This document shows positions 1,510 through 15,697 of a stretch of DNA of 64,000 nucleotides, in pieces. The position numbers and the translations under genes were made by a program. Every line of letters starts with the position of its first letter. Within the stretch, counting starts at the first letter, position 1. The stretch is from Candidatus Tayloriibacteriota bacterium. GTDB taxonomy: Bacteria; Patescibacteriota; Minisyncoccia; Phycocordibacterales; PALSA-1337. The notes beneath the pieces were generated by a model. It saw only the letters and a program-made list of their open reading frames with translations. It did no database searches and was not told the DNA's origin. The DNA is taken from contig JBAXSG010000001.1 in NCBI GenBank assembly GCA_037130865.1, forward strand, positions 41,429 to 105,428, given 5' to 3'.

Positions 1510-2148
1510 TCACCGCCGTGCTTTTACGGGTTTTACGGATTCTGCTAGATAAGCCTGAACCATTAAAGCAAAACCACGCTCAATGACGAACTTGTAGCCG
1601 GGGCGATCGTAGGACGCATCTACCCACCGACCACCATCGGCACAGCCAACACGGAGAAAGAACGGGTTGCCTCTGGAATCCTTGACTGAGTCACACATGA
1701 CAACAATCCAATCCAGACCCATCTCCTTAAAGTCCTCATCCGAGAGCGTCTCACGGATTTGGAACAATATTTCAATGTTCGTCTCCAGTGCTTTTCCATA
1801 CTTCAGTCCGCGCTTGTCACCTTCGGCTTGAATGTTCTTGAAGGTGCGGTTACCGTCTTCGAACAGCACCCCTTTCAGCACCGCGATTTCGCGGATGACA
1901 CCAGTCGTCGGCGGCATAACCAGCTTACTGAAAACTTTAGTGGCTGATTTGCTAAAGCGGAAACCCTGATCCATAAGACGCTCTTTCCACTCTGGATATG
2001 TTGTACCGTTAGTGGCAGGAAGTTGGATATAAATTACACCATCAACTTCACGCCAACGCTTTACATGCTCTTTTGCAGCCATGATGATGGCCTTTCTCCG
2101 ACCAGTGGTCGGGATTGTCCTTATACATACGTGATAAGGATTGTTCAA
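1510..2148 (-). CDS. hypothetical protein on an elevated-GC segment, upstream neighbour of the DGR
   Basis: 212-aa ORF with no recognisable motifs. Local GC is visibly higher than the flanking pgk. Start is uncertain (an alternative Met at about 2082). Confidence 0.4.
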   Translation of the reverse strand: MNNPYHVCIRTIPTTGRRKAIIMAAKEHVKRWREVDGVIYIQLPATNGTTYPEWKERLMDQGFRFSKSATKVFSKLVMPPTTGVIREIAVLKGVLFEDGNRTFKNIQAEGDKRGLKYGKALETNIEILFQIRETLSDEDFKEMGLDWIVVMCDSVKDSRGNPFFLRVGCADGGRWVDASYDRPGYKFVIERGFALMVQAYLAESVKPVKARR

Positions 2149-2190: not shown

Positions 2191-3273
2191 TCAATGACAT
2201 GAATTCGTCCACAACATTTGAGACTTTCCTGGTAATTGATTATATAACCTTATTTGTTGGCCTAGTTTATAACTATTTCCATGCGAAAGCATACCTAGAT
2301 AAGAGTTAAGCGTGGCCTCATATTTTTCGCTCTTTTCACTATCACCTTCACTATCTATAACTGCCTTTTTAGCCAACAAGTTTCTAAACATCCTCTTCTT
2401 GGTGGTTGTGCGTAAGACGCGATATTTAGGAAAATGAACCCAGCCAAGAAAATCTATACCGGAAGAAACAGTCTCTATCGATACTTTATCGGGATGAAGA
2501 TCCAGTCGCAATTCGCTCTGCAAAAAATCGCGAACTTTCGGGAGAAGACCGGCCAAAACACCTCGGTCATCATGCATAACCAAAAAATCATCGGCGTAGC
2601 GGATGTAATATCTCTGTTTCAGTTCATGTTTAATAAATTGATCCAATTCGTTTAAGTAAATATTTACCAGAAGTTGCGATGTAAGATTCCCAAGTGGCAG
2701 ACCTTTACCAAAACCGCCGGCACCACCAACAGCACCAACGACCTTACCACTAGAAAAACTGGAGATTATTTTCCAAAGCAACCCGAGAGTCGCATCATCC
2801 ACGGTATGCCTTCGTAAAACCCTCATCAAAACTTCATGATCAATAGAAGCGAAGCACTTGCGCACATCACATTTCAAGACCCAACAAGTTCGCCTGTGAT
2901 TTTTCGAAACTTTGCGTGCAAATTGTCTGAAACGATTTAGTGCTTTGTGAGTTCCTTTGAAATCTCTGCATGAATAAGAGTCAAAGATGAATCTCTTATC
3001 AAAAATCGGATACAAAATTCTGTATATAGAGTGATGCAATAATCTGTCACGAACAGTGGCTTTATGTATTATCCTAGTCTTAGGATCATTTATGATAAAA
3101 CTTTCATATAATCCGTGCGCATAGTTGCCATATAACAAATCTCTATATAAATCCGATATATTGCTAGACAGCTTTATTGTAAATTCAGCCACATCGTCTT
3201 TGCGGTTTTTGTCCACCACAAATTCCCGCCAGGCCTTGCATAAATTTTGAAAAGATATAATATCCTCGTACAT
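2191..3273 (-). CDS. diversity-generating retroelement (DGR) reverse transcriptase
   Basis: 360 aa. RT motifs are present: IINDPKTRIIHKATVRDRLLHHSIY (motifs 1/2), GLPLGNLTSQLLVNIYLNELD (motif 4 with the DGR-specific xGNLTSQ signature in place of group-II QGxxxSP) and YIRYADDFLVM (YADD catalytic motif 5). Size and N-terminus (ISFQNLCKAWREF) are typical of DGR RTs. Confidence 0.9.
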   Translation of the reverse strand: MYEDIISFQNLCKAWREFVVDKNRKDDVAEFTIKLSSNISDLYRDLLYGNYAHGLYESFIINDPKTRIIHKATVRDRLLHHSIYRILYPIFDKRFIFDSYSCRDFKGTHKALNRFRQFARKVSKNHRRTCWVLKCDVRKCFASIDHEVLMRVLRRHTVDDATLGLLWKIISSFSSGKVVGAVGGAGGFGKGLPLGNLTSQLLVNIYLNELDQFIKHELKQRYYIRYADDFLVMHDDRGVLAGLLPKVRDFLQSELRLDLHPDKVSIETVSSGIDFLGWVHFPKYRVLRTTTKKRMFRNLLAKKAVIDSEGDSEKSEKYEATLNSYLGMLSHGNSYKLGQQIRLYNQLPGKSQMLWTNSCH

Positions 3274-3332
3274 ATGAATTTAACTCAAAATCAAAATCTT
3301 TCTCATAGTACCCCCCCCGCAAAACGCCACAA

Positions 3333-3698
3333 GTGCTTTTGAAAGAGAAAGTGGTATACCGATCGTGGATATCGCTTCATAGGAATTTTCCGCGAATAGA
3401 AAGATTGGGTATTGGCCAAAAGATAGAGGCCTCTTTTCTGGATATTCTCGAATATACTTTCGTAGCAATGTATCTGGCATCTGACCAGAAAATTCTGATG
3501 CTCAGTAAAACCATAGCCAAACTAGATAAATTGAAATTTTTCATGCAAATAGCGTGGGAAAATAAACTCATACCAGAAGAAAAATATGCCCAGATATCGC
3601 TGGATCTTGAAGAGATTGGCCGCCAACTCGGCGGTTGGAGAAAGGGGTTGCAAACATCCGACCCAACGAAAACTCCCACCACAGGACAAGCCGCGTAG
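3333..3698 (+). CDS. avd: DGR accessory variability determinant (Avd-like four-helix bundle, 23S rRNA-IVS protein family)
   Basis: 121 aa from a GTG start. FPRIERLGIGQKIEASFLDILEYTFVA ... LEEIGRQLGGWRKGLQ aligns along its length with Bordetella phage bAvd (IPRKHGVAREMFLKCLLGQVELFIVA ... IAEVGRILGSWIARVNRKGQ). It lies between the RT and the TR but on the opposite strand. Confidence 0.72.
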   Translation: MLLKEKVVYRSWISLHRNFPRIERLGIGQKIEASFLDILEYTFVAMYLASDQKILMLSKTIAKLDKLKFFMQIAWENKLIPEEKYAQISLDLEEIGRQLGGWRKGLQTSDPTKTPTTGQAA

Positions 3699-3712
3699 TA
3701 GGAGAAATGGTA

Positions 3713-3830
3713 AGTTTCGGAACCACGATGCGATTCCTGTTCTCGGCGTTCCACACATTGTCGTTCAAGAAGCGGTTCACGTTCACCTTGGGAGCTCCAT
3801 CGGAGTCCAGATTCACGTTCGCGACGAAGA
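3713..3830 (-). repeat. DGR template repeat (TR)
   Basis: 118-nt segment homologous to 4163-4280. The conceptual translation VNLDSDGAPKVNVNRFLNDNVWNAENRNRIVVPKLT is rich in AAC/AAT codons. Every TR/VR difference falls on a minus-strand adenine of the TR. Confidence 0.85.
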
Positions 3831-4146
3831 AAATATGCAATAAACCATCCGTTACACCATCGGCCAAATCATGACCGATTGAATTTCATTTGGGACATAG
3901 AAGTCCGCCAGTTCATTGCACCAACTGACTATTTTTTGTTAATAGGAATACATCCACTCTCCTGCAAGACGTATCCGGCAGAATTCTCGAATGTATTTCT
4001 TCACAAGCGTGGCGCGGAAGCCTTGGCCGCCGCACATTCAGACTTGTGATGCTACTATAACAAAATCACCCCAACCTGTGGAGTGCCATCTTTTTCAGAC
4101 GGCACACCACAAGGGTCAGAGTGATTGATAGTCAGAGCGTCAAGCG

Positions 4147-4836
4147 CTAAGACTCGAGGGTCAGTTGCGGAACCACGATGCGACTCCTGCCCTCGGCGTA
4201 CCACACAATGCCGCACAAGAAGCGGTACACGTGCACCTTGGGAGCCCCATCGGAGTCCAGATCCACGCGCGCGACGAAGAGTTCACCATTGGCTTCGAAT
4301 AGGAAGAGCGTCCAGAAGTCTGTGCTGAGCCACTTGTGGTGGTTCTTCACAAACTGGATGATCTGAGGCTGTGGGAGGCACAGCTTTTTCGAATCCTCCG
4401 ACAAACTATCGAAGATTTTTTGATAGTTGCCGTTCTTGATGAGTTCATGAACAGCAACGTTCGTTTCCTTCGTCGGTTCGCTCTTCACATCGCAACCCCA
4501 GTTCTTGAAGTCGCAGTCGATGCCCCAGGTGAAAACTTTCTCTGCCCGAGCAATAGTCTCCTTGCCATCGGTTGGTTTGAGCGTGATGGTTTCCGCGCCC
4601 GAGATGAGCTTAAGGCAACCGCTCACGTTCTCGGTGATTTCTGCAAGCTTCTTCTTCACCGCTTCCATGACCACGGTTTTGAGTTCATTGCCGCGCTCCA
4701 CGAGTTTCTGAATGTTGTCACCGTTGATGACATCATTCTTTTCGAGGTCTTGGATCGCCTCCTCGGTGGCTTTACGAGCTGCCGATGTTGCGACTGTTAC
4801 GACTTGTTCTTTCTGACCAGATGTAATCGGTTTCAT
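4147..4836 (-). CDS. DGR target (variable) protein with a C-terminal VR-encoded ligand-binding segment
   Basis: 229 aa. The C-terminus ...FVARVDLDSDGAPKVHVYRFLCGIVWYAEGRSRIVVPQLTLES* is the diversified copy of the TR-encoded peptide (N->R/D/H/Y/C/I/Y/G/S, D->G, K->Q). There is no obvious N-terminal signal peptide. A ribosome-binding site AAAGGA lies 9 nt upstream of the ATG. Confidence 0.8.
   Translation of the reverse strand: MKPITSGQKEQVVTVATSAARKATEEAIQDLEKNDVINGDNIQKLVERGNELKTVVMEAVKKKLAEITENVSGCLKLISGAETITLKPTDGKETIARAEKVFTWGIDCDFKNWGCDVKSEPTKETNVAVHELIKNGNYQKIFDSLSEDSKKLCLPQPQIIQFVKNHHKWLSTDFWTLFLFEANGELFVARVDLDSDGAPKVHVYRFLCGIVWYAEGRSRIVVPQLTLES
4163..4280 (-). repeat. DGR variable repeat (VR) inside the 3-prime end of the target gene
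   Basis: Offset exactly 450 nt from the TR. There are 15 mismatches to the TR within 3731-3820 versus 4181-4270, all plus-strand T in the TR changed to C/A/G in the VR (adenine-specific on the coding strand). The 3-prime flank (4150-4170) is GC-rich and shows non-adenine mismatches to the TR (IMH versus IMH*-like). Confidence 0.85.
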
Positions 4837-5031
4837 GCCGTTATCATCCTTTCTTTATACGGCTTTCGGCCGGCCGTTGACTAACCTTCATTGGTTTCGC
4901 CACAGCAGACAGTTGCCATCGACATTAACCAAAATAGTTAACATCCTAGCCACTTTCTGCCATGGCGAAAATCGCATTTTATGTTCATTTCCGCAATATT
5001 CAAGGTGCTTTTACTACCCAATAGTATACAC

Positions 5032-5802
5032 CTAAATAGAGACTCTGTCAACCTCTTTTATAAGCTCCACAAATCCAGGAATATTTACACTTTCGCGGCC
5101 GACAAGAAGACCATCGACTTTTCCGATAGTGATAATGTCCGGCGCATTGCGGTATGTCACAGAACCACCATAGAGCACTGTAACTTTGAGACCCATATCG
5201 GCACCATAGAGATCAGCGAAAACTTTTTTAATGAAAAGCGAAGTCTCGTAAACATCTTCTGGCTTCATAGCTTCCGCGGCGCCGATAGCCCAGATTGGCT
5301 CATAAGCAACTATTATTGACTTGGCTGACTTCTTCAATATATCTCCACAACTGGCCTTGATCTGATCTTTCAGAAAACCTAGATACGCGCCGCTTTCATC
5401 GCGAACGGATTCTCCTATGCAAAGTATCGGCGTCAAACCTTGACCAAGTACCGCTTTCAAACGTGCCGCGACTGTTTCGTTGGTGTCGCCGCGCTTGCGC
5501 TGCTCCGAATGTCCAACGATGACATATTCAACTCCAATATCACGCAACATGTGCGCTCCAACTTCACCTGTATGTGGCCCACCTTCTTCTTGAGTAGAGA
5601 CCGTCTGCGCACCCATGTGAAAATGAGCAATCTTCTTGCGAGATGCGCAAGCTGTAATAAATGGCAATGGCGGACAGATCACGACTTCTGTATTGGCTAA
5701 GGCGGGTGCTGCGCGCTTGAATTTGTGCGAAAGTTTCTTGGCCTCAGCGAGCGTGGCTGGGTTCATTTTCCAGTTTCCGACTACTAGTTTTTTGTTAGTC
5801 AT
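5032..5802 (-). CDS. tpiA: triosephosphate isomerase
   Basis: MTNKKLVVGNWKMNPATLAEAKKL... has the canonical TIM N-terminus (GNWKMN) and catalytic residues. The ATG at 5802 is preferred over the ORF start at 5823. Confidence 0.92.
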   Translation of the reverse strand: MTNKKLVVGNWKMNPATLAEAKKLSHKFKRAAPALANTEVVICPPLPFITACASRKKIAHFHMGAQTVSTQEEGGPHTGEVGAHMLRDIGVEYVIVGHSEQRKRGDTNETVAARLKAVLGQGLTPILCIGESVRDESGAYLGFLKDQIKASCGDILKKSAKSIIVAYEPIWAIGAAEAMKPEDVYETSLFIKKVFADLYGADMGLKVTVLYGGSVTYRNAPDIITIGKVDGLLVGRESVNIPGFVELIKEVDRVSI

Positions 5803-5854
5803 TGGATAATTGTAACACAACAAAAATGTCCCGCCATTACGGCCATTGCTGCTA

Positions 5855-7174
5855 TTATCTCACCTCCTTCCATGAAATCATCTTATATTGATTGCCCTGA
5901 CTTCCTCCTTGTTTGATTATTGGGAAATATGGAGGTGGATTGCCAGCCAGATTCACATCATAAGCGATATTACGAGCTGTATAAGCTGTACCGTCTGTAT
6001 AAGTAAATCCAAATTTCTTATTTGTGGCTATAGAACCATTTAGCGTAAGTGTCGAACGATGAGAATAATCTATACCATCTACTCTACAAGCAGATGGATA
6101 GAAAAATCTACCGACGCGACCATTTTCTGCTATAAGAGCTCCATCTATATGCAAAGAATCAGCGCTGACTAAACCGATATTTATATTCTCCTTGGCAATA
6201 AGTCCAAGAGCTTCGGTGTTATCGTATTTTATGTACGACAAATCTGAATTGACTGTTATATTATTTGCAGCAATCGTAAGTCTTGAGCCGTCTATAGTGC
6301 CGTCGACCCAAACATCATCATTGAAAAATAGAAGACCTTGAACTGGTAAAGTATATGTGCCGAGAAAACTCTGTGAGTGAATACTCCAAGTACCCCAACC
6401 GGCTGTAGCACTGGAACATCCAGCAGGTGCTGCGACCAACTCTGTCACTGTATATAAGGTAAATGTATCATCTTGATTTAAGGCGATATGATATCCGTAT
6501 GCAGGACTTTCATCGTATTGGGATCTTGCATAATAAGTACCACTACTACTTGCGACCGTCTGAAGTCCTTGAAAATCAGCACCAAGCCCAGAAAAATCCA
6601 CCACTGTGACCGGCGCTTGCTTACCAGCATAGAAAACACCTGATCCATCTACTGCAGTGGCGCTCGAGATAATATTATTTGCGATTCCATTGAAGTGGAT
6701 GACTCCATTTGCCATGACTGGTCCAGAGGTTTCAGTATCGAATGAAAATATAAGACCATCATTTGAGACTATGGCGTATTTTGTAAATGTTGGAAGACCG
6801 AACACAGCTTCGATAGTGCGAGAGATCTTCGAACTATTCAAATCCACACTCCCTTTCGAACTAACAGATATCTTGGTCGAACCAACGGTTGTCGGAGCTA
6901 CTTCTAGTACATAATTTCCGAGAATATTACCGTCTTTATCGAAAAAATCTTGCTTATATGTGTGTGTTTGATTATCACTGGTAATATTGGCGATATTTCC
7001 TCTAAACGAACTGAGACCAGCCTCTGCAATCTCAAAAGCTTGCTCGCTCTTGACCGCCATCCTTGCATTTACGATCAAGGTCGCGCCCCAATTTACCAAA
7101 CCAATAACCATAGTCACCGCTACAGCAGCAAAAACCAAAACACTTACGAGTATATCTCCTCGAATTGTCATCAT
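5855..7174 (-). CDS. type IV pilus minor pilin / tip-associated protein, PilX-like (large)
   Basis: The N-terminus MMTIRGDILVSVLVFAAVAVTMVIGL is a hydrophobic prepilin-like helix, followed by AVKSEQAFEIAEAGL (PilX_N-like). It is the last gene of the pilB-pilC-pilin operon. Start is taken at the internal ATG-ATG at 7174 and is uncertain. Confidence 0.55.
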   Translation of the reverse strand: MMTIRGDILVSVLVFAAVAVTMVIGLVNWGATLIVNARMAVKSEQAFEIAEAGLSSFRGNIANITSDNQTHTYKQDFFDKDGNILGNYVLEVAPTTVGSTKISVSSKGSVDLNSSKISRTIEAVFGLPTFTKYAIVSNDGLIFSFDTETSGPVMANGVIHFNGIANNIISSATAVDGSGVFYAGKQAPVTVVDFSGLGADFQGLQTVASSSGTYYARSQYDESPAYGYHIALNQDDTFTLYTVTELVAAPAGCSSATAGWGTWSIHSQSFLGTYTLPVQGLLFFNDDVWVDGTIDGSRLTIAANNITVNSDLSYIKYDNTEALGLIAKENINIGLVSADSLHIDGALIAENGRVGRFFYPSACRVDGIDYSHRSTLTLNGSIATNKKFGFTYTDGTAYTARNIAYDVNLAGNPPPYFPIIKQGGSQGNQYKMISWKEVR

Positions 7175-7217
7175 GTATGCAGTTTTTTGCGATGATATTA
7201 TCTTCATATATTTATAT

Positions 7218-7667
7218 TCATAAATTGCGTAGCTGTACAAAAGCAGAGTAAGAAGCAATCGTTATCCGTACAAAACGCACAGCCGATATGTCTGTAGTGG
7301 TGGCGTCGTTACCATCGAAGTATAAGAATGAAGCCACGGAATCATAAACTATAGGTTCTGGTATACCATCGGCATTTGTATCTGAGAAAAATCTGATCGT
7401 ACTAGACCCAATAGCCGTAAGTGGGTATGCCCCACTTGGTGGTGCTGACATCTGACGCATTTCTCTTGAAATCTTTTTCAAAACTATTTGTGAACTCTGT
7501 GATACATCAAATGATCCTGATATAGATTTCTGATATGAAAATATATTAACTTCAAAAGTTGTGATCGCTACCATAATTACAAGGAATATTGAAAGTGCGA
7601 CTAGGGTTTCAACTAGAGTCATACCTCTCGTATTTTGACTATTTTGATTTTTGGGATGAAATAACAT
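7218..7667 (-). CDS. type IV prepilin / pseudopilin
   Basis: Class III signal peptide ...NTRG|MTLVETLVALSIFLVIMVAI with Glu at +5. Confidence 0.75.
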   Translation of the reverse strand: MLFHPKNQNSQNTRGMTLVETLVALSIFLVIMVAITTFEVNIFSYQKSISGSFDVSQSSQIVLKKISREMRQMSAPPSGAYPLTAIGSSTIRFFSDTNADGIPEPIVYDSVASFLYFDGNDATTTDISAVRFVRITIASYSAFVQLRNL

Positions 7668-7672
7668 AATAT

Positions 7673-8122
7673 CTATATTGATGTCGGTGTCACCTCTCCA
7701 GTCAAAACAATCGGTGTGAAATTCTTACAAGACGCGCATGAAACACTTACTTCCACGAGTTTACTGACGATAGTACCTCCTGTAGAAAATGGCGATTGCG
7801 CATTTTCATCGCGAATATACAAAGCTACAGTAAATGGTACGCCTCCTCGAACTACCTCTTGTCTCGCAGACAAAATCCCATGTGGAATCCCATCGACTAA
7901 ACCAACATCTATATATGACATACCGCGCACTATCTCTAACTGCTCACTTGCCAGAGCCAAGGCCAACAATTTTGTTTGATTCGCTCGCGCTACTTGAAAT
8001 AAGCTGGTATAGGCACTATATGCGGCTATCGCCACCACTAGAAAAAGTGCTGAACCAACAACCACTTCTATGAGAGAGAAGCCTCTTCGTGAAATCTCCT
8101 GTTGTGAGTTTTTGTGTGACAT
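7673..8122 (-). CDS. type IV prepilin / pseudopilin
   Basis: ...EISRRG|FSLIEVVVGSALFLVVAIAAY prepilin leader and cleavage motif. The start at Met 8122 avoids overlap with pilC; the ORF track gives 8137. Confidence 0.75.
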   Translation of the reverse strand: MSHKNSQQEISRRGFSLIEVVVGSALFLVVAIAAYSAYTSLFQVARANQTKLLALALASEQLEIVRGMSYIDVGLVDGIPHGILSARQEVVRGGVPFTVALYIRDENAQSPFSTGGTIVSKLVEVSVSCASCKNFTPIVLTGEVTPTSI

Positions 8123-8126
8123 TGAA

Positions 8127-9359
8127 CTAGATAACATTCACAAGTGAATACATCGGTGAGATCATAGAGATAGCAAAGAAAGCAACAGCAGCACCTATAA
8201 AGACGATCAGGAATGGCTCAATAATCGTAGACATGTCCTTGGTCTTTTGTTCAACATCTTCTTCATAATAATGAGCCACACCTGATAGCATATCCGCAAC
8301 CTTACCAGTCTCTTCACCAACACTTAACATCTCTGCCAAGAAAACCGGATAAGTTTTCGTATTTTCAGAAAAAATCTTCGACATCGAGTCTCCTTTACTT
8401 ATGGCTGTACGAGCTTTTATCAAGACAGATCTGAAGTGGACGTTTTGCACAACAGATGCAGTTATCTCCAGAGAATCGACTACACCAACACCGGATTTCA
8501 TAAGCGAAGATAGAGTACGGGCGGTGCGAGCAGCATTGATCTCTTGGACCAGGGATCCTATAAGTGGTATTTTCAAAATCATCGCATGTACCACTGCCTT
8601 ACCAGATGCACGCTTCGACCATAGATATATAGTGCCGCCAACAATCACCAAGATTATAGCTACAAATAGGCCATGATAACGAATAGCGTCGCTGATATTC
8701 AGGAGAATTCTGGTCGAGATCGGTAAAGCTACATTCAAATCCAGGAAAGTCTTCATCAAGGTTGGTACCACGAATATAAACATGAGTACACCGACAATAA
8801 GCATCACTCCGATTATGACTGCTGGATACAACATAGCTCCGCGAATGCGTCTCTCCAATTCATAAGAGCTCTCTAGCTGCGCAGCCAATATATGTAGAGA
8901 CTCAGCCAGATTTCCTCCTTGTTCACCAGCATGAACCATCGATACAAAGAGTGGTGAAAATACTTTCGGATATGCTACCAATGCTTTTGCAAGAGTTTGC
9001 CCGCCATCAACACTGGTATTTATATCTACTAGGACCTTTTTCAAACTAGCATTTCTGGCCTCCTTGATGATTACCCCCAAAGCGCGTGAAAGTGGTAGTC
9101 CGGCTTCTAACATCGATCCCAAATTCCTGGCCATATTTATCTTTTCTATAGGTTTTACTCTGCCAGATAAGAAAGGTATGTTTATATTCAGTTTGAAGAA
9201 ATCAGCACCAAAGACAGAGTTCTTCTTTTCTTTTACAGAAATAACTTCAGTACCATCTTCGCGCAACATATGATAAAGATCATAACGATCTTTCGCTTCT
9301 TTCACAGAAGAATATACTTCGCCGCTAGATTTTTTGGCTTTGAAAATGAATTTGGACAT
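8127..9359 (-). CDS. pilC: type IV pilus assembly platform protein PilC (GspF family)
   Basis: 410-aa polytopic membrane protein with the two GspF repeats (e.g. ...GLPLSRALGV..., ...LLESGVPILEAL-type segments) and three TM regions. It sits immediately downstream of pilB. Confidence 0.88.
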   Translation of the reverse strand: MSKFIFKAKKSSGEVYSSVKEAKDRYDLYHMLREDGTEVISVKEKKNSVFGADFFKLNINIPFLSGRVKPIEKINMARNLGSMLEAGLPLSRALGVIIKEARNASLKKVLVDINTSVDGGQTLAKALVAYPKVFSPLFVSMVHAGEQGGNLAESLHILAAQLESSYELERRIRGAMLYPAVIIGVMLIVGVLMFIFVVPTLMKTFLDLNVALPISTRILLNISDAIRYHGLFVAIILVIVGGTIYLWSKRASGKAVVHAMILKIPLIGSLVQEINAARTARTLSSLMKSGVGVVDSLEITASVVQNVHFRSVLIKARTAISKGDSMSKIFSENTKTYPVFLAEMLSVGEETGKVADMLSGVAHYYEEDVEQKTKDMSTIIEPFLIVFIGAAVAFFAISMISPMYSLVNVI

Positions 9360-9360
9360 T

Positions 9361-11142
9361 TTATTCTGAAACTACACGAAAGACTTCTTCTATCGTCGTC
9401 AATCCTTGGACGCATTTGAATATTCCATCCTCGAGCATGGTAAGCATCCCCTCTTTTTTGGCTTGTGCCTCAATAACACCAGAAGTGGAATTCTTCATAA
9501 CCAAGTCTTTTATACTTGGAGTCATCTTCAAGACTTCATGAATTCCGACTCGACCCTTGAAGCCATCGTCTGCAGCAGTCGTGGCAGCAGCACCATCAGT
9601 AGTGCTAGAAGGTACGGCTTTGTATAGAGAAATGGTCTTCCACGAATCGTCTTTTTTGATTATATTCTCCTTTTTTAGAGCCTCTAGAACGCGTTCTGTA
9701 TCTACAGCTTTCATAAGTTGCGCCAATTGATCAGCCGAAAGTTTATATGCTTGCTTCGAGTCAGTGAGTTTTCTGACCAATCGTTGTCCTATGACTATGT
9801 CCAATGTTGACACCAATAAAAATGGTTCAACTTTCATATCAAGTAGTCTTGGAATAGCGCCTGCAGCGGAGTTTGTGTGCAAAGTAGAGAGAACTAAGTG
9901 ACCAGTCAAAGCTGCATTCACAGCCAAAGCGGCAGTTTCGTCGTCACGGATCTCACCAACCATAATAATATCCGGGTCTTGGCGTACTAGAGTACGGATA
10001 CCTTGAGCAAAAGAAAAACCTATCTCTGGACGGACTTGTGTCTGATTGACTCGAGGCAACTGATATTCTATAGGATCTTCAATGGTAGATATATTTACAT
10101 GTGGTGTATTCAATACATCGAGCATTGTATAGAGCGAAGTGGTCTTTCCGGAACCGGTCGGTCCTGTAGTAAGGATCATGCCTGTTGTGACATTGAGAGC
10201 GTGGTGAATACATTCCAGCGCTTCACCATGAAAATGCAAAGACTCCAGAGTAAAACCAGTGATACTTTCTCGAAGCAAGCGCATCACTATCTTTTCTCCA
10301 TAATATGTCGGCAATATAGAGACACGAAAAGCGACCTTTTCATTATTTAAATCTAGTTTGAAGCGACCGTCTTGTGGCAAACGCTTCTCATCCAACTTGA
10401 GTGCGGCCAAGACTTTTATACGTGCAGAAACTGATGGTCCAGCCTCTTTCGGTAAAACCATTGCGTCATGCAACATGCCATCTATTCGATATCTGACGAG
10501 GACTTGATCATCCATAGGCTCTATATGAATATCAGATGCGCCTTGTATAGCAGCGTGCTTGACCAAAGTGTCTACAATACGCACTACAGGCAAGTCTTCA
10601 GCGAGTTTCTTCAAATCTGTCTCCGAATCGGTGCTTCCGACACGACTTTTTGCCAAATCTTTCAGAGTAGCTGTATCCTTTTGCAAAATATCACCAAACT
10701 CTGCCTTCAAGCTCTTTTGGTATTGGACCAATGCTTCGCGCATAGAGTCCGTATCTGTGAGACGCGGTAAAATCTTTATATTTACTTTCTTTTTTATAAA
10801 ATCTATAGCCGACAAATCGTTCACATCCAACATAGCTACCTCAAGTCCAGCATCACTCTTCTTAAATGCTACGATATTGTGACCACGAGCAATCGGTTCT
10901 GGTATGAGAGACAGTATATCGAAGGGTATTTTTTCTCCTTTCAGGTCTACGAAAGAAATACCTATAACATAGGCTTGCATACGACGGAGATTGTCAGCTG
11001 TTATCCTGCCAGAAGATATCAGTACATCTCCAAGGCGTTTGCTGGAAGCTTCTGATTCTTTCTTGGCGTCGTCGAGATCAGTCTTGGATACAAGTCCTGA
11101 ATCAGAAATAAATTTATAGAGCTGGGCGTCTTCTGCGAACAT
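9361..11142 (-). CDS. pilB: type IV pilus assembly ATPase PilB (GspE family)
   Basis: 593 aa with an N-terminal GSPII-type domain, Walker A TGPTGSGKTTSLY, Asp box, Walker B DPDIIMVGEIRD and His box LVLSTLHTNSAAGAI. Confidence 0.9.
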   Translation of the reverse strand: MFAEDAQLYKFISDSGLVSKTDLDDAKKESEASSKRLGDVLISSGRITADNLRRMQAYVIGISFVDLKGEKIPFDILSLIPEPIARGHNIVAFKKSDAGLEVAMLDVNDLSAIDFIKKKVNIKILPRLTDTDSMREALVQYQKSLKAEFGDILQKDTATLKDLAKSRVGSTDSETDLKKLAEDLPVVRIVDTLVKHAAIQGASDIHIEPMDDQVLVRYRIDGMLHDAMVLPKEAGPSVSARIKVLAALKLDEKRLPQDGRFKLDLNNEKVAFRVSILPTYYGEKIVMRLLRESITGFTLESLHFHGEALECIHHALNVTTGMILTTGPTGSGKTTSLYTMLDVLNTPHVNISTIEDPIEYQLPRVNQTQVRPEIGFSFAQGIRTLVRQDPDIIMVGEIRDDETAALAVNAALTGHLVLSTLHTNSAAGAIPRLLDMKVEPFLLVSTLDIVIGQRLVRKLTDSKQAYKLSADQLAQLMKAVDTERVLEALKKENIIKKDDSWKTISLYKAVPSSTTDGAAATTAADDGFKGRVGIHEVLKMTPSIKDLVMKNSTSGVIEAQAKKEGMLTMLEDGIFKCVQGLTTIEEVFRVVSE

Positions 11143-15004: not shown

Positions 15005-15697
15005 ATGAAAAAATATCAATTCACAGGTGCTTTTCTAGCCCTATCTTTAATAGTTTCACCAATCCTAGTCTACGGACAAGTTCGTGAACAAAAGGACAAT
15101 CAAAGACCCAATCAAAGTGACAACGAAAATGCCAAGCCGATAATAATGCCTTACCGAGTAGGGACTTCCACTCCAAAAGTATTCAGTTCGACAACTCGTC
15201 AGGATATACAAGAAAATATCCGCCAACAGATCGATCAGAAGCGCAACGAAATTAACGATAACCGCAAAGAGCTTCGTGTCGATATATTCAAACTCCAACA
15301 GAACAATATCACGAGACAACTCGAGCGCTCTTTGGAAAACCTCAAGCAAGTGAGCTCTCGTATCAGTGCTCGTATAACAAAGGCTGAACAAAGCGGAAAA
15401 ACCATGACTTCAGCAAAAGCCTTGCTTGTTATAGCAGAAGAAAAAATGACTGCTGCTGAAACTGCGGTTGCTTTATTTGTAGCTTACAGTCCTACAGCAT
15501 CAAGTACTATCGCTTCTACAAGCACAGCTGCTACTTCCACAAATATTCAACTCGATAAACCTCGTCAGGTTGCTTCTACTGCAATAACAGCGATAAAGAG
15601 CGCCAAAGACGCATTGAATGCTGTTGTTGTTTCCATTGCACAAGACATGGGTATTAACCTTAGTGATAGTCCAATATCAAATACAGAAAATAAATAG
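15005..15697 (+). CDS. hypothetical secreted coiled-coil protein
   Basis: Signal peptide MKKYQFTGAFLALSLIVSPILVYGQ. Gln/Arg-rich heptad region and a low-complexity Ser/Thr/Ala C-terminus. Confidence 0.5.
   Translation: MKKYQFTGAFLALSLIVSPILVYGQVREQKDNQRPNQSDNENAKPIIMPYRVGTSTPKVFSSTTRQDIQENIRQQIDQKRNEINDNRKELRVDIFKLQQNNITRQLERSLENLKQVSSRISARITKAEQSGKTMTSAKALLVIAEEKMTAAETAVALFVAYSPTASSTIASTSTAATSTNIQLDKPRQVASTAITAIKSAKDALNAVVVSIAQDMGINLSDSPISNTENK

Follow-up and report, generated by a model that had tools for sequence, protein, structure and literature searches.

The subject of this analysis is a gene at 4147–4836 in a 64,000-nt stretch of contig JBAXSG010000001.1 (assembly GCA_037130865.1, Candidatus Tayloriibacteriota bacterium; hereafter the window). 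The gene codes for the sole variable protein of an intact diversity-generating retroelement (DGR) of the type found in bacteria belonging to the candidate phyla radiation (CPR). The 229-aa product combines a helical N-terminal module with a 157-aa domain that is predicted to resemble the fold of C-type lectins (CLec), and its diversified residues lie close to the C-terminus. The best explanation overall is that of an intact DGR target with a CLec-like domain, made without a leader and acting as a binder in the cytoplasm, a reading in which our confidence is middling.

An intact DGR cassette with a single target

A preliminary description of the window had named the 229-aa open reading frame (ORF) at 4147–4836 as a DGR target. 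This identification holds: the ORF is present, and it is accompanied by a pair of variable and template repeats (VR and TR), a reverse transcriptase (RT) gene and the accessory gene avd. The elements of the cassette are as follows.

4147–4836, minus strand: DGR target (variable protein) gene, 229 aa, leaderless, from the ORF list
4159–4280, minus strand: VR, aa 186–226 of 229, a 122-nt direct repeat with the TR at 87% identity
4183–4269, minus strand: mutagenized span, codons 190–218, with nine AAY codons in the TR, from the codon map
4159–4182, minus strand: 3′ end of the VR resembling an initiation of mutagenic homing (IMH) element, CGCATCGTGGTTCCGCAACTGACC, with the TR copy CCGAAACTT, from the VR/TR alignment
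3709–3830, minus strand: TR, the sole other copy of the repeat in the window
3333–3698, plus strand, opposite to target, TR and RT: avd accessory gene (Pfam bAvd, 1.4e-12; NCBIfam DivGenRetAVD, 2.7e-16, a match under the NCBIfam 80-bit cut-off)
2191–3273, minus strand: DGR RT, 360 aa (Pfam RVT_1, 3.1e-27; LGNLTSQ and YADD motifs)
4064–4126, minus strand: long hairpin followed by a U run, 3′ of the target stop codon, from RNA folding
3673–3704, minus strand: hairpin and UUUU directly 3′ of the TR, in overlap with the 3′ end of avd, from RNA folding

The cassette runs in the order target/VR, TR, avd on the reverse strand and RT, and avd points toward the TR from its 3′ side. In 90% of the CPR set of Wu et al. 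2018 (PMC5758913, section 22) the order is likewise TR–(avd reversed)–RT, which defines architecture B3.

Compared on the coding strand, VR and TR differ at 16 positions, 15 of them TR adenines and the remaining one a T>G change. Within codons 190–218 all 14 of the 14 mismatches fall at TR adenines; the last two mismatches are located in the 3′ end of the repeat, at codons 224 and 225, which read AAA and CTT in the TR but CAA and CTG in the VR. The nine AAY codons of the TR correspond to positions 190, 192, 202, 204, 208, 210, 213, 216 and 218. These codons alone allow about 4e10 variants, and counting every adenine gives about 1e17 protein variants as an upper bound. The same nine positions are hypervariable across homologues, with an entropy of 3.1 bits versus 1.17 for the rest of the domain. 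The diversified segment had been described beforehand as about 35 residues at the extreme C-terminus, which comes close; the measured span is aa 190–218, some 29 residues, within a 41-codon repeat (aa 186–226).

The two repeats end differently, with ...GTGGTTCCGCAACTG in the VR (4159–4182) and ...GTGGTTCCGAAACT in the TR (3709–3732). The difference between CCGCAAC in the VR and CCGAAAC in the TR is kept, together with its flanking nucleotides, in most of 22 aligned related loci, the proteins of which are only about 50% identical. Since the C/A difference recurs across loci, it would represent a fixed marker rather than the outcome of random mutagenesis, and on this comparison it probably corresponds to the distinction between IMH and IMH*. 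In that case, part of the constraint on the conserved protein motif VVPQL may act at the DNA level.

RNA folding revealed two further elements. The hairpin at 4064–4126 (dG −51.3 kcal/mol, z −7.2), which none of 200 shuffled sequences matched in stability, begins about 20 nt and ends about 85 nt past the target stop codon and is followed by UUUUGU, with a small 4-bp hairpin right after the stop. We infer that it serves as a terminator and/or as a DGR-associated hairpin (cruciform). The element 3′ of the TR reads CTCCTAC...GTGGGAGTTTT in the window and CTCTCA...TGAGAGTTTTG in loci L005 and L011 and most other related loci; it could be a 3′ structure of the TR RNA used for priming, or a bidirectional terminator.

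No second VR for the TR and no paralogue of the target were found in the window, where the target and the TR frame are the sole matches of the family profile. The 230-aa and 356-aa ORFs at 15005 and 16068 were considered as signs of a further DGR or target and rejected, the longer one being trigger factor and the shorter one having no family match.

The target protein contains a predicted, divergent CLec-like domain

The target protein starts with MKPITSGQKEQ... (MKPITSGQKEQVVTV...), has a calculated isoelectric point of 5.9 and is 100% identical to the NCBI hypothetical protein WCO48_00310 (P0001) of a Candidatus Taylorbacteria metagenome-assembled genome. Pfam, NCBIfam and PADLOC searches assigned it to no family, and a PHROGs search likewise gave none that was credible. 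Several weak matches were dismissed as sub-threshold and inconsistent, namely HMD_N (E 0.0026), QatB (E 0.014), designed armadillo repeats and the caspase-1 CARD (E 0.03–0.15), and Hoc-like and tail-fibre entries of PHROGs (E >0.07).

AlphaFold2 (AF2) was run on the target with a 66-sequence alignment. The full-length model reached a pLDDT of 91.3 and a pTM of 0.70 and contains helices at aa 6–33, 42–47 and 49–69, followed by an alpha/beta domain from about aa 75 to the C-terminus; pLDDT falls to 72 at aa 61–70. Modeled alone, aa 73–229 gave a pLDDT of 95.5 and a pTM of 0.91. The protein can be divided accordingly into two parts.

4621–4836, minus strand: N-terminal three-helix module, aa 1–72, from the AF2 model
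4150–4620, minus strand: CLec-like domain, 157 aa (aa 73–229), the conserved family domain

This division departs from the preliminary description, in which the CLec-like unit was a compact tip of about 35 residues and the upstream 190 aa or so formed one unrecognized domain. Both AF2 and the family profile point instead to a 157-aa CLec-like domain, and the upstream portion splits into the body of that domain (aa 73–185, completed by the VR) and the helical module.

From aa 125 onward, the secondary-structure elements of the model follow the order beta-alpha-alpha-beta-beta-beta-beta, which matches C-type lectin-like domains (CTLDs); the CLec-type groups named beside this match are animal CTLDs, Link modules, intimin/invasin and Bd2740, together with the FGE/EgtB/SenA/OvoA group. 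Structure prediction, proposed earlier as a check, thus delivered a confident model with a CTLD-like order of elements, and the accompanying structural comparison did not follow suit: Foldseek of the model against the PDB retrieved nothing at E <0.1. Among PDB chains with E up to 10, the family profile matched none of CLec type, and a Pfam scan of the target showed no FGE-sulfatase, DUF1566 or Lectin_C match at E up to 1. Taken together, the model supports with moderate confidence the assignment of aa 73–229 to a highly divergent CLec-type fold, the predicted resemblance being distant. The variable positions 190/192 and 202/204 alternate on two predicted strands, which suggests that they share a single exposed face.

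It is improbable, in our estimate, that this fold call is wrong. In favor of such an error are the lack of a Foldseek match, the lack of a sequence-profile link to CLec proteins and the many CPR VRs that were left as ‘unknown VR’ classes by Wu et al. 2018 (PMC5758913). Against it stand the agreement of the secondary-structure order with CTLDs and the location of the VR on C-terminal strands and a loop, as in known DGR CLec proteins. The divergent CLec-type reading also fits the prediction of Roux et al. 2021 (PMC8144416) that unassigned CPR VR domains are new CLec variants.

Cysteine pairs (CDFKNWGC, CLP) had been pointed out earlier as a feature of the protein, and the family alignment does not bear this out. 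Of 66 members, one has a cysteine at the position of C108, 28 at that of C115 and 62 at that of C153, the only conserved one. A single conserved cysteine implies that the domain is not disulfide-stabilized; the cysteine pairs that form the disulfides of animal-type CTLDs are not conserved among the 66 members. C208, one of the five cysteines of the target, falls on a diversified codon.

Family size and modular N-termini

The family profile was searched against 1.84 billion cluster representatives (clusters at 50% identity). With an E limit of 1e-3 the family, for which there is no Pfam model, comprises 2,530 clusters, and with a limit of 1e-30 it comprises 933. Its members share profile positions from about 66/75 to 230, i.e., the CLec-like domain. 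In many of them the N-terminal 70 residues or so are absent or swapped for other short helical sequences, and some members of 153–170 aa consist of the domain alone. Two or three CLec-like domains of about 155 aa are arranged in tandem in P0121, P0122, P0135, P0145, P0156 and P0204, again without a leader or a Pfam domain; a scan of ten atypically long or multi-domain members found a Pfam domain in none of them. The hallmark of the family is thus the 157-aa domain, and the aa 1–72 module is its variable, swappable part.

The occurrence of the N-terminal module in other targets, also raised in the preliminary description, was followed up with two profile searches. In the local search the module type recurs in family targets, and it was seen only there. 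The global search with the module returned one match, P0379, and left known family members unlisted, so that it is uninformative. P0379 (L045, 5001–5942) is a truncated family member, in which the N-terminal module and the start of the domain give way to unrelated sequence. Downstream of its gene lie a 99-aa ORF and a HicA toxin gene in a HicA/HicB-like arrangement, which suggests disruption by insertion of a toxin–antitoxin system.

Start codon, export signals and predicted localization

The stop-to-stop frame of the target extends over 4150–4854; past its in-frame stop, a TAA located seven codons upstream, no start codon precedes the ATG at 4836. Because this stop lies just 5′ of the ATG, an N-terminal extension is impossible, and no shift of the start codon adds a leader. 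An AGGA motif is found 10 nt 5′ of the ATG, and the start MKPITSGQ is common to many homologues. All of this speaks against the explanation that the missing leader is an annotation artefact, with the real start lying upstream and encoding a signal peptide. No support for that explanation was found; longer N-termini are called for a few database homologues (P0010, P0054, P0172 and P0219), and these extensions are not common to one another. For the target gene it is already refuted by the closed frame, and overall we regard it as exceedingly unlikely.

Neither the target nor the 66 aligned members showed an N-terminal hydrophobic region, a lipobox or a twin-arginine motif in hydropathy and motif scans. 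The top 19-residue Kyte–Doolittle window of the target scores 0.79 and lies in predicted beta-strands at aa 175–193. The target also has no transmembrane segment, pilin N-methylation motif or LPXTG, and no Pfam N_methyl match, unlike the pilins encoded nearby. The earlier claim that the protein has no signal peptide or hydrophobic leader is therefore confirmed by the scans and by the stop codon that bars an upstream start, and correction of the start codon brings no Sec or Tat signal to light, the frame being closed seven codons upstream of the ATG.

Across the family, a hydropathy scan classified 376 of 378 proteins as leaderless and found a membrane-anchor-like N-terminus in the other two, P0116 (L044) and P0351 (L043, 151–729). 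In both, the anchor-like segment replaces the helical module and stands directly before the domain (MRKKLFVSIGAVVIIAVAVLLVIVIKK; MNIKNPRSFSVIIFLLIIISIFSY). P0116 is encoded on a 627-bp contig; the P0351 gene is followed by ndk and has no DGR in cis. A membrane-anchored subfamily, sought with P0116 as the query, was rejected, as the closest relatives of this protein (89% identity) lack the anchor.

With no leader, the target most likely remains in the cytoplasm. Action in this compartment is favored because leaders are nearly absent from the family, no disulfides are conserved and the protein is of small, soluble character; from these sequence properties, we consider the chances of a cytoplasmic role to be about even. 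Several points weigh on the other side. The argument for the cytoplasm is one from absence throughout, and Patescibacteria might use unrecognized export routes. The anchor-like segments of P0116 and P0351, if real, would mean that the domain can work outside the cell. In addition, no partner gene was found to be conserved beside family targets among the neighbors checked, which leaves a cytoplasmic role without a partner to explain it.

The same protein, diversified by the same DGR mechanism, could instead act outside the cell after non-classical release or display, for example by riding on a partner bound by the N-terminal helices, in vesicles or through lysis. It would then bind the surfaces of host cells or particles, which fits the episymbiotic lifestyle of Patescibacteria. 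The DGR variable proteins studied by experiment, Mtd, LdtA and TvpA, are surface-exposed binders (PMC8867640), and the hydrophobic segments that take the place of the helical module in P0116 and P0351 point in the same direction. However, these are two proteins against 376 leaderless ones; P0116 is perhaps a chimera, given its short contig and its anchor-free relatives, and P0351 lacks a DGR in cis. A similar balance applies to the type IV pilus cluster (5855–11142), about 1 kb from the window cassette: its closeness would suit surface display, but the target has neither a pilin N-methylation motif nor LPXTG, and the proximity is not kept in other loci, which lie by ribosomal, aminoacyl-tRNA-synthetase and ABC-transporter genes. 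Overall, we consider an extracellular role, the main rival of the cytoplasmic one, possible but rather unlikely; the remaining probability goes to a mistaken fold call or to some other explanation.

Proposed mechanism

We propose that the RT, together with Avd, would reverse-transcribe the TR RNA and misincorporate nucleotides opposite adenines, and that the resulting cDNA would replace VR codons 190–218 by mutagenic retrohoming. Positions 190/192 and 202/204 on their two strands, joined by the 208–218 loop, would probably form one exposed binding face, and the target protein would be a hypervariable ligand binder. In the least certain step, the protein, having no leader, would most likely remain in the cytoplasm and act there on its own as a hypervariable binder. 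Its N-terminal helices, which vary within the family, may serve as an adaptor or oligomerization piece.

Distribution of the family and its cassettes

Thirty-eight family loci, taken from GTDB species representatives, were compared. They belong to Patescibacteria records, apart from a few labelled ‘uncultured bacterium’, and the sole label of another phylum is that of the 3-kb contig L020 (Gammaproteobacteria). The named groups are Paceibacteria, Parcubacteria, Nomura-, Zambryskii-, Falkow- and Moranbacteria, as well as Saccharibacteria-labelled records.

An orthologous RT (50–59% identity) and a reverse avd directly downstream of the target were detected in 22 of the 38 loci, and a TR in cis in 23. 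According to a direct scan, these TRs show 9–24 adenine mismatches and 0–3 others, in all but L022 (one adenine mismatch, two others). Locus L004 has a TR (7038–7147) with 15–18 adenine-only mismatches and no RT or avd within 6 kb. In 15 of the 38 loci neither a TR nor an RT was found in the flank, the view being limited by contig ends in two of these. In about 40% of family loci, RT, avd and TR are all missing over some 6 kb; loci without cassette parts are L003, L012, L017, L023–L026, L028, L032, L033, L036–L038 and L041. L017 belongs to the same genome as L016, which has a DGR. The cassette-less loci may be orphan copies or targets in trans.

Two family genes were found close together on several contigs: in L020 at 274–1014 and 2201–2935, in L021 at 1–675 and 2380–3093, and in L030, where the second family copy (2891–3436) lies downstream of the RT. 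Such contigs may represent multi-target cassettes.

Genomic neighborhood

In the window, the DGR cassette and a 212-aa ORF sit between pgk (250–1446) and tpiA (5032–5823). These are glycolytic genes that are usually adjacent, and the position of the cassette suggests insertion into a housekeeping operon. The neighbors of other family loci are likewise housekeeping genes.

The 212-aa ORF (1510–2148, minus strand) lies directly downstream of the RT. It matched no Pfam, NCBIfam or PHROGs family, its sole PADLOC match was weak (PDC-S35, E 0.003), and no homologue of it was found among 44 related loci. It was also considered as a non-diversified paralogue of the target and rejected (BLASTP E 0.65). 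As candidates for a conserved partner gene, the upstream genes for a 221-aa protein in L001 and a 222-aa protein in L003 were discarded, being unrelated to each other and to this ORF.

The type IV pilus cluster, on the minus strand, comprises a 467-aa ORF without a family, two pilins with an N-methyl motif, a PilC-like T2SSF protein and a PilB-like T2SSE protein.

Comparison with known systems and significance

DGRs are strongly enriched in CPR bacteria, and the targets of CPR DGRs were reportedly described by Paul et al. in 2015 and again in 2017 as having no transmembrane segments, signals or conserved domains. The same was stated by Roux et al. 2021 (PMC8144416, section 9), who posed the localization of these proteins as an open question. 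Nothing essential sets the window cassette apart from the CPR DGRs of clade 2 (Roux et al. 2021, PMC8144416) or the B3-type ‘CPR set’ of Wu et al. 2018 (PMC5758913). It shares with them a chromosomal location among housekeeping genes, a VR at the C-terminus and a target that lacks a transmembrane segment, a signal and a conserved domain. The missing signal peptide and the unannotated body of the protein are thus already known for the CPR group, of which the target is a good example, and current knowledge is not overturned. The present analysis contributes the boundary of the domain (aa 73–229) and an AF2 model of high confidence. It also assigns the domain, weakly but consistently, to the CLec type and shows how large the family is and how modular its N-termini are.

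To our knowledge, the CLec fold is used by all structurally characterized DGR variable proteins. Among the solved CLec proteins, Mtd of a Bordetella phage, TvpA of Treponema denticola (2y3c), AvpA of Nanoarchaeota and TaqVP of Thermus aquaticus have a C-terminal, AAY-driven VR, as does the target, and the VR of AvpA (aa 181–210, PMC6328139) occupies a similar position. They differ in how the domain is deployed: Mtd forms the tip of a phage tail fibre and TvpA has a predicted lipoprotein signal for the outer membrane, whereas the target has neither. Collectin- and tetranectin-type CTLDs, which carry an alpha-helical neck, offer another parallel; the target shares with them no conserved disulfides, signal peptide or sequence similarity, and the resemblance is a lead only.

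Cytoplasmic DGR targets of CLec type have been predicted in multicellular bacteria and proposed to be antigen sensors (Dore et al. 2024, PMC10907252). The target shares with these proteins a presumed cytoplasmic location and a diversified C-terminal domain, which is of CLec type in the sensors and CLec-like in the target. However, the sensors are of large size and built from several domains (STAND/NACHT NTPases, MoxR-associated systems), among them transducer and effector parts, and they belong to RT clade 5, whereas the target has 229 aa, with about 70 aa of helices upstream of the domain, no NTPase and no conserved neighboring effector.

The locus is a clean, apparently intact example of a CPR target family that seems to rank among the largest. 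Specialists in DGRs would not be surprised by it, yet it lends itself to testing where CPR targets are localized, and aa 73–229 provides a concrete construct for expression, structure determination, localization and ligand screening. More tentatively, and with some doubt, we suggest that the family may constitute an intracellular hypervariable recognition system, in which cytoplasmic ‘antibody-like’ binders are furnished with swappable helical modules that couple binding to different partners. Their targets would be, for example, phage proteins or host-derived molecules. If true, DGRs would here serve a purpose that departs from the surface-display paradigm, by a simpler design than that of the NTPase-linked sensors of multicellular bacteria.

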